From a virus, in IMG/VR virus record IMGVR_UViG_3300029908_000007, positions 98,309 through 162,308 of that record: a stretch of 64,000 nt of DNA; one strand, given 5' to 3'. Positions within the stretch are counted from its first letter, which is position 1. The number at the start of each line of letters is the position of its first letter. A model generated the notes under the pieces. It was not told the DNA's origin. It made no database searches and saw only the letters and a list, made by a program, of their open reading frames with translations. The position numbers were made by a program, and so were the translations under genes. Positions 4,418-61,799 of the stretch are shown here, piece by piece.

Positions 4418-4873
4418 TTAAAGTTGACCGATTAGTTGTGGAATTATTACCAAATCTTGCTGTAAACTGTTTGTTTCGTTTTGCACAATTATTCCCACGT
4501 AATAGACGAAGTCGCCGGGACCAAAACCTGTAACACCGTCATCAGGGCGCGTGTTCTGGATGGTACCACTCAGACCAATCCAAATAGCCTGTCCTATCGC
4601 AAATCCGTAGGTAAGAGAAAGATTTAAAAGTCTGCCGTTGCTGATCACTGGCCCGTTGGCATTACCGGGAATTCTGAACTGAGCAATGCCAACAAATGCG
4701 CTAACCGAAGCCTGCGAGGTGACATCGGTGGGCGCGATCATGTCTTGTGTGCCAGTAGAGCTGACAGGGGTTCCTTGAGGAATTGCGGTACCACTATTAT
4801 TGGTATAGTTAGACACAATTCCAGTGGAACTTGCGGTACTTTGCTGACTAAAGAAAAATGGACTATAAGTCAA
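4418..4873 (-). CDS. Small virion structural protein (capsid-cement/fibre-attachment-like fold)
   Basis: 151 aa; similar in style to the C-terminal domain of 2032..4404; structural operon context. Confidence 0.45.
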   Translation of the reverse strand: MTYSPFFFSQQSTASSTGIVSNYTNNSGTAIPQGTPVSSTGTQDMIAPTDVTSQASVSAFVGIAQFRIPGNANGPVISNGRLLNLSLTYGFAIGQAIWIGLSGTIQNTRPDDGVTGFGPGDFVYYVGIIVQNETNSLQQDLVIIPQLIGQL

Positions 4874-4888
4874 AGTTAGCTCCCAAAG

Positions 4889-7861
4889 TTATAAAATATA
4901 CCAAGCTGATCCCGAACTGACCACGGTTACGGTTTGCCATTGCGAAGACAATAGAAAAGTATTGCTGCCATCTATCAATTCCGACCCATTGGCCATAATC
5001 GTTAAAACATTTGCGCTGGAATCGATCTTCTTCATAAAAAAGATTCTTCCAACACCAGTGGCTGCGGTTGGAAGAGATAGTGTAAATGCTCCACCGGTGC
5101 AATCGCCTAAAATTACAAAGTCTGTAGACATTAGGGTATATGGACCGGTTTTCGTAGAAACTGATACCGCGTTTCCAAATGCGTTGGTTCCAGCAGGCCC
5201 TGCGGGACCAGTAGGACCAGTAGGACCTTCGGGTCCGATTTCGCCCAGACTCCCACCATTACCGGCAAAACGAAACTGAAGTTCGTCGCCAACAACTAAT
5301 CCGCCACCGGGAAAACTAACGATTTGAATTTCATTACTAGGAGCGCCAGAGGCCCCGACTTCAGCATAGGCTCCGCTTTCAACGTCTAAAAACTGACCAT
5401 TAAGAAGAACTTGTAGTGTTCCTTTGCCCACGGTATAATATTGCGTTGCGTTGGCTTCTCTGCTATTATTTGGAAGATGAATGAAACCGCCATTGGCAAC
5501 GGGTCCGTTTATAGAGACCGGAGAATTTAAAGAAGGAGGATATGTTCCACCGGAAGCGACGACATCAACGGTCTCATCGTATGTTGGGGAATCCAATGAA
5601 CTTAGAATGATTCCAACGTCTTCATCAAGTTTTTTAATACCCAATGTTAGATTATCGCCGTCTTGAATAGCAAAGTTTCCACTACCAGTTCCGGCCTGTG
5701 TGGCAGAAATTGCAAACGGAGCACCCACATTAACGTTAGCCGGTGAATTGGTAAGACCGGCGCTGTTATTGGTAACGGTAATAACATTACTAATTGCGGT
5801 TGCGGTGAAATCTTTTCTGCTTGTGGAATTGAGAAGAGTGGTCAACGTAGTTGCGGTTTGAGCAGCGGTTTGTCCAGTGGTTACAATCCATTCCAAAGAA
5901 ATCGCATTTGCGATTGGCATTGGATCCACGCCGGTTCCATCTTTGTTTACCCAAACATAGTACTGTATAAGACTAACGGAAGGAAAAATTTCAAAATACT
6001 GATTAGAAGCCATCGAAGCCGCGCTACCGGTTGTAATGCTAACGATCTGTGGAAGAACTAAAGGTCCTCCGCCTTCCCACATTTGATATGTAGAAACATA
6101 GGCTGGAGCGGTGGCGCTTTCAATTGGGCTACCGGTGTAGGTAAGTAGGTTTTGAATTTGAGGACCACTGACGTTTTCGCTGACGCCATATGATAAATCC
6201 ATTCCTAACCAACGAATATAAACTCTAGGTAAGGCGCCGCCGTCATCGTTTCTAGCTAGCAACCACCAAGTATTCGATGCAATCGGTACGCTTGCACGTG
6301 GTACGATTTGAATATCTCTGGAATTACCACTAACACCGGGTAATGTATATTCTCCCCAAGCATATTGAGAAGCCGCTCCGCTAGCCCCCGTAGAAGTTCC
6401 ACCATAAGTAGAAGTCAATGTGACTTGTGAAACAGAATTAACTGTCAAAATCTGATAATAGGCGGCATGACTTGCTGAAGCTATTTTGATCCAATCACCA
6501 GCAAGTACAGCGGACGTCCAGGCCACACTGCCTACGGAACTAACTACAGCAGAAGCATTGGTCCAAATAAGATCTGGGGAGATTGCGGCGTCGCGAGTAA
6601 GTTCTAAATAAGCGACTTCACCATCGGTCAGAGTTACTGTGCTACCCGTAGGATTTGCTTGGATCTGATATTCTAAATTAGAACCTATTACTTTAAAATT
6701 TAAAACGTTGGACCAATTAATTTGGCCCGGTTGCGTTGCCACAGGATTTGTAAATGAAACCGTGGTTCCAGTTACAGTATCTGAGGCTTCGTTGGACATG
6801 ACAACCGTGGAACCACTAATAGAAAGAACCGTGGTGCCAGCGATAAAAGCTTCGCCACTGATATACTGACCACTGGCTATTCCTGTTGTGGAAGCCAGAC
6901 TGGTAATTTGGTTGCTGCCTAGGGTAACGTTACCGGTAGTCGTGAGAATTGGTGTGGTATCGGGAATCACACCGTGACTGATGTTACCATTACTGGTTAA
7001 GATGGTATTAACAGCGTCTTCTCTAAGTTGAGGTACACTGCCACCCGGACTTGGACCGGTCCCAAAAAACGAATACCAATAGGGTCCGCCGCCTAAATCT
7101 AGGAAGCCCGACATCACAGCGTTCATCCAATCCTTGAGATCGGTGATGGCTTTGTCTCCACCGTAAAACGGATTGCTGCCGTTTGTGGTAGTTACTGGTG
7201 GATTTTCTGAAGTCCCTTCCGGCCAACTATAGACATTGAACGGATTAGGATTGGCGCCGCCTGTTCCTAAGCGAAACAGTAGGGGCCTGGAATCTGTTAT
7301 GGAAACCACGTTGTTGCCGCTATCGGTAAGAATTACGGCAATGGGAAGAATGTTGGAAGCCCAAACCGTAGATGTGATTACGAATTCGTAGTTTAGGATG
7401 ATCGCTGCGGGATCAATTGTGGAATCTTGTTGGCTCGTTGAAGGATCCCAAAGCGCACGTTGTACGTCGGTTGTGGGATCTTGGAAGCGATAGTAATCGA
7501 TGCCAACATAGTTATTGGTGCCTGGAACGAAGGCGCCGCTGACATTTGACACAATCGCAGCATTTAGGGTAACAGCGGGGGTTCCAGCTGGAACCAAATA
7601 TATGGTACCTGACTGAGACGCGGTGACGTGCATGAGGGCGCCAGCGCTAACGATTACCTGTAGGTTTGAGGCGGCGCCACCGATGGGGTTGGTGGCCATG
7701 TTTAACGCGAAGCCGTTGATGATATAGGGGTTACCGGCTCCGGTCACGAATGCTTCAAAAGACGTGTCAAAGTCAGCACTTACAGCGGATTCAACAGCCT
7801 TTAGATCAGGCACGTCAACTCTCATCTGACTTAAATAATTTTCGCGGCGCTGAATAGCCAT
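4889..7861 (-). CDS. Baseplate-attached tail fibre protein with a short collagen-like segment
   Basis: Start revised to MAIQRR (7861; late motif and GAGG upstream); GPEGPTGPTGPAGPAG; fibre-type C-terminus KKIDSSANVLTI. Confidence 0.7.
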   Translation of the reverse strand: MAIQRRENYLSQMRVDVPDLKAVESAVSADFDTSFEAFVTGAGNPYIINGFALNMATNPIGGAASNLQVIVSAGALMHVTASQSGTIYLVPAGTPAVTLNAAIVSNVSGAFVPGTNNYVGIDYYRFQDPTTDVQRALWDPSTSQQDSTIDPAAIILNYEFVITSTVWASNILPIAVILTDSGNNVVSITDSRPLLFRLGTGGANPNPFNVYSWPEGTSENPPVTTTNGSNPFYGGDKAITDLKDWMNAVMSGFLDLGGGPYWYSFFGTGPSPGGSVPQLREDAVNTILTSNGNISHGVIPDTTPILTTTGNVTLGSNQITSLASTTGIASGQYISGEAFIAGTTVLSISGSTVVMSNEASDTVTGTTVSFTNPVATQPGQINWSNVLNFKVIGSNLEYQIQANPTGSTVTLTDGEVAYLELTRDAAISPDLIWTNASAVVSSVGSVAWTSAVLAGDWIKIASASHAAYYQILTVNSVSQVTLTSTYGGTSTGASGAASQYAWGEYTLPGVSGNSRDIQIVPRASVPIASNTWWLLARNDDGGALPRVYIRWLGMDLSYGVSENVSGPQIQNLLTYTGSPIESATAPAYVSTYQMWEGGGPLVLPQIVSITTGSAASMASNQYFEIFPSVSLIQYYVWVNKDGTGVDPMPIANAISLEWIVTTGQTAAQTATTLTTLLNSTSRKDFTATAISNVITVTNNSAGLTNSPANVNVGAPFAISATQAGTGSGNFAIQDGDNLTLGIKKLDEDVGIILSSLDSPTYDETVDVVASGGTYPPSLNSPVSINGPVANGGFIHLPNNSREANATQYYTVGKGTLQVLLNGQFLDVESGAYAEVGASGAPSNEIQIVSFPGGGLVVGDELQFRFAGNGGSLGEIGPEGPTGPTGPAGPAGTNAFGNAVSVSTKTGPYTLMSTDFVILGDCTGGAFTLSLPTAATGVGRIFFMKKIDSSANVLTIMANGSELIDGSNTFLLSSQWQTVTVVSSGSAWYIL

Positions 7862-28852: not shown

Positions 28853-29740
28853 TCATTTTCTTCGCTTTCTTTTTGCTACCGGTCTGTTTTTTTGCCATGT
28901 TGTATCAGTGCTCCTATTGTTATTTAGGTATTCTATAGCTTTTAACATTAAGTCTTGTGAATCGCTAAAATGTCCTAAACCTCTATTGCATTTGTCACAC
29001 AGAAGGCCTCTGATTAAACCAGTCTTATGGTCGTGGTCTACAGACATACGCTTTTTAAAATCTTTTTGGTCTATTTTACATATAGCGCATTTTCCATCCT
29101 GTTGTCTCAAAAAATCTTCAAAATCTTCTAAATTTATTCCATAAGTAGATCTCAATTGACTATTTTTATATTGATGGGGTTTCTTTTTCCTTCTTTCATT
29201 ATCTTGCATTCTTACTCTCTCTATATTGTTCTTTTTCCAGTTATCCGGGGTTCCCAACTGACAATCTATACAAAAAGGTCTAGCGCCATCTTTAGTTCTT
29301 TTACTCGGATAAAATTCTGATAATTTTTTAGTTATTTTACATTTAAAGCAATTTTTAAGTCCTTCTAAAAAAAGAGGATTGTGGGGATGTTTGAAGCTTT
29401 TACCGAAAGGATTTTTAGAACGCATTAAGGTTTTGTCCATATGCGCCGTAGCCTCTTCTAGCCATCCATTTCTGCCAGCGATAACTGGAGCAGATGGGGA
29501 CTCTCTTTCCCAATCAGACGGTCTGTCAAATCTTTTAGCGTCTTCCATTATTTTTTCTTTAATCCAATATCCATTGGGTTTCTTTTTGGGTTTCATATGC
29601 GCTGTCAGTTCTGGTAACCACCCATTTATTCTGGATTTATCGTAAGCGTGTTTAGACTCCAACTTCCAGGCGCTCTTAGAATTAAATCTCAGAGCGTCCT
29701 CTCTACATTTTTCTTTAGTCCAATATCCCCAATTTTTCAT
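28853..29740 (-). mobile_element. Endonuclease VII-family (HNH) homing-endonuclease-like gene
   Basis: QQDGKCAIC...VDHDHKTGLIRGLLCDKCNRGLG; N-terminal WTKEKC/WIKEKI repeats. Confidence 0.8.
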
Positions 29741-29741
29741 A

Positions 29742-30227
29742 TCACCATTTCAAACTAAATTCAAGGTTGATAAAGTCCCGACCAAGATTTTGTGGATATA
29801 AATCACAATTTGAGATGTGATTGTATTCAATCCCCATCCCAGCTCCGTCTTCATCCCTTATTCCAATCCCCAGATTCTCATTAAAGTTGGGAAATATCCC
29901 GCCCAAATAACTATCTGTTGATGTAATCATAGCCAATCCAATCCCACTCCTAATTTCCACAATGCCTTCATGCACAACAATACCAAGTCCGGAGCTTCCA
30001 TAAAGACTACTACTCCTAGCCGGATTGCCACTATTGTCGGTCCAATAACCTACCTTGTTCTGCCAGTAAAGTGATCTTAATAGATAGTAGCGATAGCCCA
30101 AATCCACGGTTTTCGTCTCGATCATCGAATTAGTAGCACTAGGTCCCACACCTAGGCCGTAATTGATGAAGGCTTCATCGGCGAAGACTTGGCTGGCGAG
30201 TAGAAGTAGAAAGAGATATTTCATCAT
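29742..30227 (-). CDS. PagL-like lipid A deacylase/acyloxyacyl hydrolase outer-membrane beta-barrel
   Basis: Signal peptide; amphipathic strands; YNHISN...NLG motif; C-terminal W. Confidence 0.65.
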   Translation of the reverse strand: MMKYLFLLLLASQVFADEAFINYGLGVGPSATNSMIETKTVDLGYRYYLLRSLYWQNKVGYWTDNSGNPARSSSLYGSSGLGIVVHEGIVEIRSGIGLAMITSTDSYLGGIFPNFNENLGIGIRDEDGAGMGIEYNHISNCDLYPQNLGRDFINLEFSLKW

Positions 30228-30245
30228 TTTCCCTCATTTTTTAAA

Positions 30246-30334
30246 GTGCGTGGGCCGCTGGACCACCCTATCTCCACTTAGCCGGAATTGTACCGGCACC
30301 CGCGCACCCTCAGCCCTCCGAAGAGAGCGGAGAT
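30246..30334. ncRNA. GC-rich structured element with a 14-nt inverted copy of the DGR VR 3' end
   Basis: Stems ATCTCC/GGAGAT, GCCGG/CCGGC and GTGCGTGGG/CCCGCGCAC; 30246-30259 is the reverse complement of 30851-30864. Confidence 0.5.
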
Positions 30335-30541
30335 TTAAAATTCACTGTAAGGACCGGACCAGTCCCCGCCACGTTTACCGATGCAAAATAATCGCTTGGA
30401 GACGTATCCACAGATGGGTTCCATCCAATGAGCGCGGGTCCAATGACACACCAGCAGAGGATATTGGCAGAGCATCCACTGATCTTCGCGGTGAAAGACC
30501 AGCCATCCGAAAATAACGGGCACCCTAAAATACAACTTCAT
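30335..30541 (-). CDS. Hypothetical protein (MKLYFRVP...)
   Basis: ATG overlaps the TGA of the frameshift-corrected upstream gene. Confidence 0.45.
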   Translation of the reverse strand: MKLYFRVPVIFGWLVFHREDQWMLCQYPLLVCHWTRAHWMEPICGYVSKRLFCIGKRGGDWSGPYSEF

Positions 30542-30787
30542 CCCCCGCCTCCCTCTTTCATGGCCTCTAGGCTGCGGATACGGGCTATGAGTTCGAGGAT
30601 CGCGGTGGGGGTTGCAAGCTGCGATGAACTCAGAATCCTCTTTTGGTTTGTGCCCAGTGTAAGCCACATACCAAACATCACGAGTAATGTGCGCCGTCTG
30701 AATTACATCATTGTCAGCCGTCTTATGCCAAGGTCCCGGCGTCGCCGACCGTGCGAGTTTTTCAAGAGCGTCGTAATCTGTGGTCAT
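30538..30787 (-). pseudogene. Ead/Ea22-like gene with a +1 frameshift in a C5 tract
   Basis: LEKLARSATPGPW...FIAACNP; removing one C at 30607-30611 restores PTAILELIARIRSLE. Confidence 0.65.
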
Positions 30788-30800
30788 GGGGTTCCTTTCA

Positions 30801-30970
30801 GCCTCCCTTGCGGTCGGCAATTACCTAATCATCAAATGATATTCACGCCTAGCGGCCCACGCACCGAACCGCATAGGTACTGATGCGGAAGCCATAGTAC
30901 ACGACGCCGCCGAGGCTGCCGTTGAATATCCACGCACTGTAGCGACCGCCGGAGAACACCGAGGCGGACC
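30801..30970 (-). other. DGR variable region with downstream IMH-like T-rich tract and hairpin
   Basis: NNC/NNT codons at variable positions; TCATTTGATGATT followed by GCCGACCGCAAGGGAGGC after the stop. Confidence 0.6.
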
Positions 30971-31223
30971 AAAAGCTTTCTACGTCAGGGATAACATTGA
31001 GCAGTCCGTTCTCAATGGCCACGGAGATTTCATCCCTTGTTGGGATGCCCCATGCCCTGTCTTTGAATTTACCTAATTCAGCCACAAAAGACGCTTGTGT
31101 GATCTCAATGGCTTTGTCGAAAGCATACTTGTCTTTCAGCGGAGGACTCCAGAGGAGATTCGTTTGATTGTCTCTCCAGAAAACGAGGCCTTTTTTATTC
31201 GTGATCTTTGTAAAAGATTTCAT
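30849..31223 (-). CDS. DUF1566/Lcl-type C-lectin-fold protein, DGR target-like
   Basis: TNLLW...WGIPTRDE...FWSAS...AW...VRCV; GC-rich, A-poor 3' variable region. Confidence 0.75.
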   Translation of the reverse strand: MKSFTKITNKKGLVFWRDNQTNLLWSPPLKDKYAFDKAIEITQASFVAELGKFKDRAWGIPTRDEISVAIENGLLNVIPDVESFWSASVFSGGRYSAWIFNGSLGGVVYYGFRISTYAVRCVGR

Positions 31224-31555
31224 AGTTTCTCTTTCTCCGTTGAAGACGTGTGAGGCTGTTCATCTAGCAATGCGCCATGTTCCTTGGATCGTCCGAGAAA
31301 CTTTTCAAACCGCTGTTTCTTTTCCATGACTCTTTGAGCGAAGTCATCGGGCCATTTAACGAGACCTTCTTCAATACACTTTTCCATCATCCCGTTTAAA
31401 TCTGCCCATTCGTGCATGATGCGTTCGGCGTTGGTGTAGGGCTGTCCCGGCTGTATCTCTCCCAAGCTAAACCTGGCAGCTTTGCTGGCTCGTTGCGCGA
31501 CTTCGCCACACTCTTCCATTAAATTTATCAAAATATGTTCTGTTCTATCCATCAC
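31220..31555 (-). CDS. MazG-like NTP pyrophosphohydrolase
   Basis: LMEECGEVAQRASKAARF...EWADL. Confidence 0.7.
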   Translation of the reverse strand: MMDRTEHILINLMEECGEVAQRASKAARFSLGEIQPGQPYTNAERIMHEWADLNGMMEKCIEEGLVKWPDDFAQRVMEKKQRFEKFLGRSKEHGALLDEQPHTSSTEKEKL

Positions 31556-31788
31556 TCCTCCGAAACCGGCGGCCTACTTATTGTCAGATTTCTGGGTTTA
31601 CTGACGGTAATTGGATTCATTCATCGTTTACCCCAAACATTCGACAAAGTTTTGTAAGTACTTTCAAGACTGACTTTCGATCCATTCTTAAAAGAAGATC
31701 AGCACATCGCCCATAAATCACATCCTCGAATGCTTCTCTCTGTTTTGGTGTCATTGTTCAGCCTTTCTTAAGCACAATCCTACCAGGC

Positions 31789-32064
31789 TTATTCTGACGC
31801 ATCAGCTTTTGCCGGGTTACTCTTGTGTGCTTCCCATCCTAGACGAAAAGCATTTTTCAATCGAACGTCTACCGACGCTCCAACTTTAATTCGATCCTCA
31901 CAAAATCGTCTAAGAGCCAGTTCGAATGGTCGACGAGCCTCTGGAATATTTTCAAGATAGGCATATTCATCCTCTCTGATTCTGTGTTTAAACCCATCTC
32001 TTTTGGCCTCAGCTTCACCCCGTGGTGAATCCTCGTACCGCCTCATTTGACCTCGATCATCCAT
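31789..32064 (-). CDS. Hypothetical protein
   Basis: 91 aa with AGGA RBS. Confidence 0.45.
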   Translation of the reverse strand: MDDRGQMRRYEDSPRGEAEAKRDGFKHRIREDEYAYLENIPEARRPFELALRRFCEDRIKVGASVDVRLKNAFRLGWEAHKSNPAKADASE

Positions 32065-32239
32065 TTTTATTTCCTTTCTTCAGCGTAGTCCTGCGCGGTT
32101 CAGCGTTTCATATTTTGATGATTGACAACATCTCGTCGACAGAAACTGGGATCGGTGTCGTCATTCCCAGTACAGACGAGCTTCCCATCAGTAGAACAAG
32201 CGCTTAAAGCAATCATGGCAATTAAAATCATTAGCAGTT

Positions 32240-61615: not shown

Positions 61616-61799
61616 GAGACCTTCCATCCCTTACGATAGGTTAATTGCTAACCTACCGTCCTTGCGCAAGGGATGGAAGGTCTAACGATTGTCTTATATC
61701 ATAAACTCGTATAACTTTTATACGATATGACAATTTAGGGCATTTTAATTGCCAATTATTGTCACTATTTCTATAGAAAACCTTATATTGATTTATGGC

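Follow-up and report, generated by a model that had tools for sequence, protein, structure and literature searches.

The stretch of DNA analyzed here (64 kb, hereafter the window) comprises bases 98309-162308 of a 162,308-bp IMG/VR phage record with a completeness rating of 98%. On its minus strand, it carries a stand-alone DUF1566/Lcl_C gene of 124 aa (30849..31223) whose 3' end resembles the variable region (VR) of a diversity-generating retroelement (DGR). Taken as a whole, the observations are probably best explained by an orphaned, static DGR target cassette. According to this explanation, the DUF1566 gene and ~60 nt of its 3' flank would form a DGR target cassette that is mobile and belongs to the CLec2/DUF1566 class, and comparative sequence patterns suggest that the last ~125 nt of the gene were rewritten by mutagenic retrohoming from a template repeat (TR) common to at least four other phage lineages. 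In the present phage, the cassette is orphaned, with a genome devoid of template, reverse transcriptase (RT), and Avd; the tail is fixed in the population, and both the recognition hairpin and the end that resembles an initiation of mutagenic homing (IMH) site have drifted. An initial annotation of the window had proposed an orphan DGR target at this position, and this proposal is supported by equidistant tails in five diverged homologues, invariant scaffold codons, the lectin fold, and the absence of RT, Avd, and TR.

The VR-like tail (30849..30974, minus strand; FWSASVFS...VRCVGR plus stop) was recognized by its comparative pattern and is GC-rich and A-poor. Its coding strand contains 13 A in 120 nt, exactly as counted in the initial annotation, and this is the minimum of all 120-nt minus-strand windows in the 64 kb, only 0.01% of which are as low in A (mean 35 A). 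The variable codons had been described as ending in C or T, which is correct for most of them but not for ATA and GCG. The pattern was examined in a five-way codon alignment of the window with the four closer homologues for which DNA was available (L012, L013, L010/L034, and L037). Between the window and L012, DNA identity is 87.6% in the rest of the gene and 62.5% in the tail, and between the window and L037 it is 51.2% in the rest of the gene and 71.7% in the tail. As all ten pairs range from 46 to 88% in the rest of the gene and from 62.5 to 75.6% in the tail, tail identity is independent of the divergence elsewhere in the gene. The scaffold codons of the tail are the same across homologues even at four-fold-degenerate sites, and a 27-nt scaffold block (AGCTTTTGGTCCGCCTCGGTGTTCTCC) shows no difference among the four lineages represented by the window, L012, L013, and L037. 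Codons with an invariant amino acid vary silently at 17 of 21 positions upstream and at 8 of 17 in the tail. Variable sites at codon positions 1/2/3 number 44/33/61 in the 69 upstream codons and 21/20/21 in the 40 tail codons, which means that position 3 dominates the variation upstream and that variation in the tail is spread evenly over the three positions. The ratio of transitions to transversions is 406:387 upstream and 143:212 in the tail, with transversions in excess in the tail only. The tail thus combines discrete variable codons, changed at positions 1 and 2 and set between invariant scaffold, with variable regions that are equidistant from each other, as is found in DGR targets. We call it DGR-written because repeated copying of one conserved template with randomization at fixed sites gives such a pattern, and protein-level selection does not. 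On this pattern, rather than on a TR/VR pair, we accept that the tail was in all likelihood written by a DGR in the past.

The gene product fits this interpretation by its family and predicted fold. The match to Pfam Lcl_C (E 2e-7) scores 31.8 bits and is thus under the gathering cut-off of 34.9. An AlphaFold2 model of the 124-aa protein (pLDDT 89) gave 50 top PDB matches that are dominated by C-type-lectin folds, with a best E of only 6e-3, and the Legionella Lcl C-terminal domain (8q4e, TMq 0.58) is among the PDB matches. The fold search also returned the C-terminal domain of Bdellovibrio Bd2740 (8oks). As modeled, the protein is a stand-alone C-type-lectin-fold domain in which the variable residues lie in a C-terminal C-type-lectin/DUF1566 fold, as in DGR targets. 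An exhaustive phmmer search found 247 homologues, most of which carry the tail FWSASV.S..R..AW.F.G..G.V....R....VRCVGR at the C-terminus of larger proteins, and one family member (P0133) retains 11 Asn at variable positions. Among GenBank phages, there was no DNA match and no protein match. The CLec2/DUF1566 class of DGR variable proteins corresponds to category 'd' of Wu et al. 2018, with Legionella LdtA as an example (PMC5758913). The gene shares with this class the C-terminal C-type-lectin-like domain ending in ...VRCVGR, the variable codons interleaved with invariant scaffold, and the GC-rich IMH-like 3' end, which in the relative L010 comes with a downstream GC-rich inverted repeat. It differs from the class in that there is no cognate TR, RT, or Avd, in that the tail is static and the hairpin decayed, and in that the protein is a stand-alone domain of 124 aa, encoded in a large phage's nucleotide-metabolism region, instead of a tail-fibre or surface protein. 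By its pattern, the gene is a CLec2/DUF1566-class member; a TR, an RT, and population variability, the marks of an operating DGR, are missing.

The whole 162,308-bp record yielded 0 matches to RVT_1 and 0 to Avd (23S_rRNA_IVP). With adenine-tolerant ungapped scans, no template repeat differing from the tail only at adenines was detected in the window or in the rest of the genome, so that the absence of RT, Avd, and TR, which the initial annotation had stated for the 64 kb, is upheld and extends to the entire genome. The same scans gave no match in L034, L186, L189, and L037. In the entire 35,221-nt contig of a distant relative, RT, Avd, and template repeat were likewise absent, and none of the cassette-bearing relatives has an adjoining TR or RT. 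In the 621 nt downstream of the tail, there was no adenine-tolerant template match, and a gapped adenine-tolerant alignment to 30200-30848 revealed no TR, with scores within those of shuffles. When the downstream region was itself treated as a TR, no target was found elsewhere. The 27-nt scaffold block had no match in the viral contig collection and none in GTDB genome contigs, and its 20 matches in metagenome contigs were all to unrelated GC-rich DNA. An IMH-like pattern matched 147 stretches (27 viral and 120 genomic), 0 of which had a DUF1566 context. The back-translated FWSASV(F/Y)S pattern gave one true DUF1566 match, in a Bdellovibrionota metagenome-assembled genome (MAG), without a TR. 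This match (L250:6645-6770, plus strand, MAG JTS-AC74) is at the DNA-pattern level the only GTDB genome match with a FWSASVYS...VRCVGR tail, and no TR lies within 8 kb of it; together with the Bd2740 fold match, it may hint at where the cassette comes from ecologically.

The tail is invariant in the available material. Across many samples, 23 contigs encode the identical protein, and it is the only member of its 90% cluster. Over the tail, the following 150-codon open reading frame (ORF150), and the spacer, nine independent assemblies of different samples show 100% identity, which means that the population hypervariability of DGR targets is not seen across these assemblies. The ~60 nt past the stop codon (30788..30848, minus strand; TAGGCGTG...ATTTGATGATT...) are conserved between the window and L010 and were defined by alignment with the latter as the 3' flank of the cassette. 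This flank includes a GC-rich hairpin at 30801-30818, which in L010 has a clean 6-bp GC stem with a 4-nt loop (z -1.6), whereas in the window (GCCGACCGCAAGGGAGGC) it has two mismatches in the 3' arm and a z of +0.15, i.e. it folds no better than shuffles. The hairpin that had been noted behind the tail in the initial annotation is therefore present as a sequence but not as a fold of any distinction. With regard to an IMH, the GC-rich 3' end and the conserved flank are both present, and the hairpin is intact in L010 and broken in the window. In DGR targets, the IMH is followed by a GC-rich inverted repeat, which only 34% of DGRs carry (PMC5758913). Relative to L013 and L010, the IMH-like 3' end of the window shows five silent differences and a 3-nt deletion.

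Many genes in the relative L034 recur at the far left end of the present genome, and it is among them that its cassette sits; the cassettes of L012 and L037 have other flanks. As the cassette is found in different neighborhoods, it is mobile. The position in L034 is among homologues of the 4-12 kb region of this genome, away from the ribonucleotide reductase genes. In a cassette-carrying relative phage (L034:2862-3470, L189/L190), a serine resolvase, a CSD protein, and a HicA-like toxin are encoded among many tiny open reading frames.

The 3' terminus of the tail takes part in a 14-nt inverted repeat. Arm L (30246..30259; GTGCGTGGGCCGCT on the plus strand) is the exact reverse complement of arm R (30851..30864), which is found at the IMH-equivalent position and consists of the last 13 coding nucleotides of the DUF1566 gene and the T of its TAG stop codon. 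The arms are separated by 591 nt. On the minus-strand RNA, arm L reads AGCGGCCCACGCAC and is followed by UUUAAAAAA and then by the ribosome-binding site of a PagL-like gene. Both the 14-mer and the primer-like geometry that had been described for it were reproduced: the complement is on the same strand, downstream, perfect at 14/14 positions, and has its 3' end facing into the tail. A strand that is complementary to the GC-rich end of the repeat and oriented to prime, as in the spacer (Sp) RNA of DGRs, has a p of ~5e-4 in shuffles. Matches of at least 14 nt to the variable region in either orientation occurred in 0.06% (621 nt downstream), 0.04% (+-1 kb), and 0.02% (element alone) of mononucleotide shuffles, and blastn-short of the 14-mer against the whole genome gave an E of 0.066. 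The genome as a whole contains only three independent inverted repeats that are perfect over at least 14 nt and within 1 kb, at an expectation of roughly 0.6 by our own calculation with uniform composition. Two silent changes that are specific to the window, GGG>GGC and CGG>CGC, are both inside arm R, and these lineage-unique substitutions together equal a reverse complement (GCGG to CCGC). One may speculate that this reflects a single templated or template-switch event or a micro-inversion, tolerated because it was silent. In the minimum-free-energy (MFE) fold of the 686-nt minus-strand RNA, the arms are included in a long-range 15-bp helix, with an overall z of only -1.2. Several other roles for the repeat were rejected. 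An inversion switch does not fit, as there is no serine recombinase, the sole tyrosine recombinase is 125 kb off, and one orientation occurs in all assemblies; a miniature inverted-repeat transposable element or other insertion with terminal inverted repeats does not fit a gene-internal arm within sequence that is colinear with relatives; and a recurrent regulatory motif does not fit 9-mers that are unique in the genome. A tyrosine recombinase domain of the Phage_integrase family is encoded at record bases 4550-5035 (plus strand, E 1.2e-21) in a phage that otherwise looks lytic and T4-like.

Arm L belongs to an intergenic element of 107 nt (30228..30334, minus strand). Its predicted fold consists of a C(UUCG)G-capped 9-bp hairpin with a 1x1 mismatch (30309-30332), a local helix with arms at 30298-30308 and 30245-30255, and a heptaloop hairpin (30281-30297). 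The alternative local pairing of the 14-mer that had been proposed exists: on the minus strand, CCCGCGCAC at 30299-30307 can form a helix of 10 bp and one C.A mismatch. Of the structured element that had been described, the stems are thus present, but stability is ordinary on the transcribed minus strand (z -1.28) and unusual only on the plus strand (z -2.9). In Rfam at E<=10, no match to the element was obtained, and only two chance matches were returned. No intrinsic terminator was predicted, and this role was rejected for the element. The UUCG hairpin, which could be compared with an Avd-binding stem-loop, lies upstream of the template-like arm and represents a generic motif, as the genome has nine UUCG hairpins versus 3.4 in shuffles. 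A search for an analogue of the stop duplex of DGR RNAs gave a best complement of 8 nt and a duplex energy within the shuffle range. In L010/L034, the cassette is followed by unrelated downstream genes, with no homologue of the element and no complement of at least 10 nt to their own tail end; in L037, there is no element, and the cassette runs directly into another gene; and in a relative with a 77%-identical PagL gene, a whole ~1.9-kb block that includes the element is absent. Conservation or covariation of the 14-mer with the repeat end was consequently not found in these relatives. The element is a lineage-specific sequence outside the conserved cassette, and the 14-nt complement is real, statistically unusual, and unconserved, with a DGR-related function unsupported.

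The closest known arrangement is that of the BPP-1 DGR RNA, in which the TR 3' end (TR117-129) pairs with Sp47-56 and A56 primes cDNA synthesis (Handa et al., 10.1101/2023.10.23.563531). Avd is bound there by an 11-bp UNCG-capped stem-loop directly after the TR, and a second (stop) duplex brackets the TR (10.1101/2023.10.23.563531). Common to both cases is a strand whose sequence complements the GC-rich 3' end of the repeat, and which lies downstream on the same RNA with its 3' end directed into the repeat; loosely similar are a nearby UNCG-capped hairpin (~9 bp in the window) with an unpaired base and adenosines after it. Differences are found in the distance of the complement, which is 590 nt from the VR here and ~50 nt from the TR in BPP-1, and in the pairing, with 14 perfect pairs here versus 7 canonical and 3 non-canonical ones in BPP-1. 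Moreover, the window has no TR, stop duplex, thumb ring, RT-binding stem, or RT-Avd, and the order of hairpin and template arm differs.

Several points weigh against an orphaned, static cassette. The source template was never found, so that 'DGR-written' is a reading of the pattern, and assemblies hide minority variants, so that the identity of nine of them speaks at the assembly level. A perfect 14-nt complement within 1 kb arises in only ~0.04-0.06% of shuffles. It lies exactly at the IMH-equivalent terminus, where it has the geometry of the template:primer duplex (TR:Sp) of BPP-1 (10.1101/2023.10.23.563531), and the GGG>GGC and CGG>CGC changes lift complementarity from 11/14 to 14/14, as co-evolution would. 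Finally, the UUCG-capped 9-bp hairpin with its internal mismatch precedes the 14-mer in a manner loosely reminiscent of the Avd-binding stem-loop. The initial annotation had offered two options in this direction. The element could be the relic of a deleted DGR, i.e. a remnant Sp RNA whose 14-mer was the former primer strand for a TR 3' end identical to the VR 3' end, with template body, Avd, and RT lost. The 14/14 complement at the IMH-equivalent end, to which the window-specific tail end contributes a perfect match, speaks for this option, as do the UNCG-capped 9-bp hairpin and the A-run. In addition, the local 5' arm GGUGCGCGGG is like the tail end at 9/10 positions and pairs with the same strand over a ~40-nt loop, a scale that matches the distance from TR129 to Sp47 in BPP-1 (10.1101/2023.10.23.563531). 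We nevertheless regard a relic as unlikely, since neither the sequence beside the element nor all of 30200-30848 contains anything TR-like, the UUCG hairpin lies upstream of the TR-end-like arm, whereas the hairpin of BPP-1 is downstream, a stop duplex is missing, as is any fragment of RT or Avd, the start of the PagL gene follows the 14-mer at 19 nt, and the cassette-bearing relatives have no adjoining TR or RT. The other option was an active split DGR, in which the element would act as a primer- or spacer-like RNA in cis, RT-Avd would come in trans from the host, from a prophage, or from a co-infecting phage, and the template would be the mRNA of the target itself or an external one. Geometry and perfect pairing are right for such a system, and as the tails must have been rewritten after the lineages diverged and no sampled genome has a TR or RT, a trans-acting DGR would have to exist or have existed somewhere. 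TR and RT supplied in trans do work experimentally in BPP-1. A split DGR is nonetheless improbable, as nine assemblies show no variation, the hairpin of the target has decayed, RT and Avd are missing, self-templating would irreversibly erase adenines, and relatives with equally rewritten tails have no such element, which is thus not needed for rewriting. Of the four refuting outcomes named in the initial annotation, three were obtained within the reach of the tools used. Neither option is supported by the data, and both were down-weighted rather than dropped because the 14-mer is statistically unusual and its geometry is right.

Two further explanations do without a DGR role for the repeat. 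A long-range mRNA helix unrelated to DGRs, in which, on a polycistronic minus-strand transcript, the spacer ahead of the PagL gene is the pairing partner of the DUF1566 gene end and ORF150 is looped out, could act in processing or stability or as a translation-sensitive switch against the competing local helix. This would accord with the excess of the 14-nt match over shuffles, the 15-bp helix in the MFE fold, and the alternative local partner, and ribosomes terminating at the DUF1566 stop would be expected to open the long-range helix. We give it a small chance only, as the overall fold is unremarkable at z -1.2, the helix ends 10 nt before the PagL Shine-Dalgarno sequence and does not occlude it, the motif is not recurrent in the genome, and there are no relatives for a covariation test. 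Moreover, compared with known sites of RNase III, 14 bp is a short helix. Divergence of the tail under ordinary diversifying selection on the binding surface of a lectin, together with an inverted repeat that arose by chance, would account for the failure to find a TR in any collection scanned, and DUF1566 domains also occur without DGRs. This explanation is very improbable, as selection at the protein level can neither keep four-fold-degenerate scaffold sites identical across genes that are 51% identical upstream nor render all tail pairs equidistant. We therefore favor the orphaned, static target cassette, in which the 14-nt complementarity most likely has no DGR role and may be either a coincidence that was sharpened by the two clustered silent substitutions or an ordinary long-range or local mRNA structure.

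All genes surrounding the DUF1566 gene are on the minus strand. In the direction of transcription, ribonucleotide reductase is followed by small genes including a HAD-like one, a 47-aa gene, a 91-aa gene, a MazG-like NTP pyrophosphohydrolase gene, the 124-aa DUF1566/Lcl_C gene, ORF150, the 107-nt spacer, the PagL-like lipid A deacylase gene (29742..30227, Pfam PagL E 1.3e-8), and an endonuclease VII-domain gene. As the PagL gene of the relative (77% identity) directly abuts the 47-aa gene, 30228-32099 of the window (~1.9 kb) is an inserted block, which comprises the 91-aa gene, the MazG-like gene, the DUF1566 gene, ORF150, and the element, with the element (30228-30334) at the 3' edge. The block may be described as an insertion or moron block. 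ORF150 (30335..30787, minus strand) resembles phage families only in its first 60 aa, with matches to phrog_1667/4029/8171 confined to residues 2-62; the GC-rich remainder had no homologue among 5.8 billion proteins, and a 6-frame Pfam scan of the GC-rich region gave nothing. Its codon-usage score favors another frame at 30542-30607 and is near zero at 30338-30541, the last 68 codons. ORF150 has the appearance of a fusion or frameshift, and the alternative frame of 30542-30607 would end at a TGA that overlaps the ATG at 30541. A sequencing error is not the cause, as the same sequence was present in all fetched assemblies.

Other observations concern the surroundings. The endonuclease VII-domain protein (295 aa; 28853-29740, minus strand) has an internally duplicated N-terminal module with direct repeats 156 nt apart, and as the relative with the PagL gene has a 94-aa gene in its place after PagL, the nuclease gene is possibly an insertion of mobile origin. 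A perfect 16-nt inverted repeat (AGACCTTCCATCCCTT and its complement, spacer ~37 nt) at window 61617-61685 is the only other strong short-range hairpin of such length genome-wide. Beyond the window, the phage record begins at its left with a tandem array of 24-nt period (CGTGCGATTCGAGCCAGGTTAGGG...; bases 1-100), as revealed by a direct-repeat count.

DGR targets that are remote from their RT are known, mainly from cellular DGRs, and are found inside the genome of the RT itself (PMC5758913). The cassette resembles such non-adjacent targets of Treponema and cyanobacteria (PMC5758913, PMC8144416) in having a VR without an adjacent TR or RT, and it differs from them in that there is no RT anywhere in the replicon. 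DGR surveys have been anchored on the RT and therefore miss targets without one, as has been stated explicitly (PMC8144416). If the 14-nt complement were a true priming element, and only then would it matter, a target could bring its own spacer RNA. It is, in our estimate, improbable that this phage retains only the cis-acting parts of a DGR, i.e. the target and a spacer-like primer element composed of the UUCG hairpin and the 14-nt strand, and obtains RT-Avd from the host or another mobile element; were this true, the mobile DUF1566 cassettes of several RT-less phages would be rewritten in trans across replicons. On the favored explanation, a DGR-written cassette without any DGR would be carried by one large and complete phage, as well as by at least one fragment from a distant relative. 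The presence of the cassette in different neighborhoods of different phages implies that such tails move between phages as small modules, and the rewriting of the tails would postdate the separation of those lineages and would be the work of an unsampled trans-acting DGR or else have preceded repeated losses. The finding is useful for the annotation of gene tails that are A-poor and GC-rich, and for estimates of how frequently DGR products outlast their machinery.

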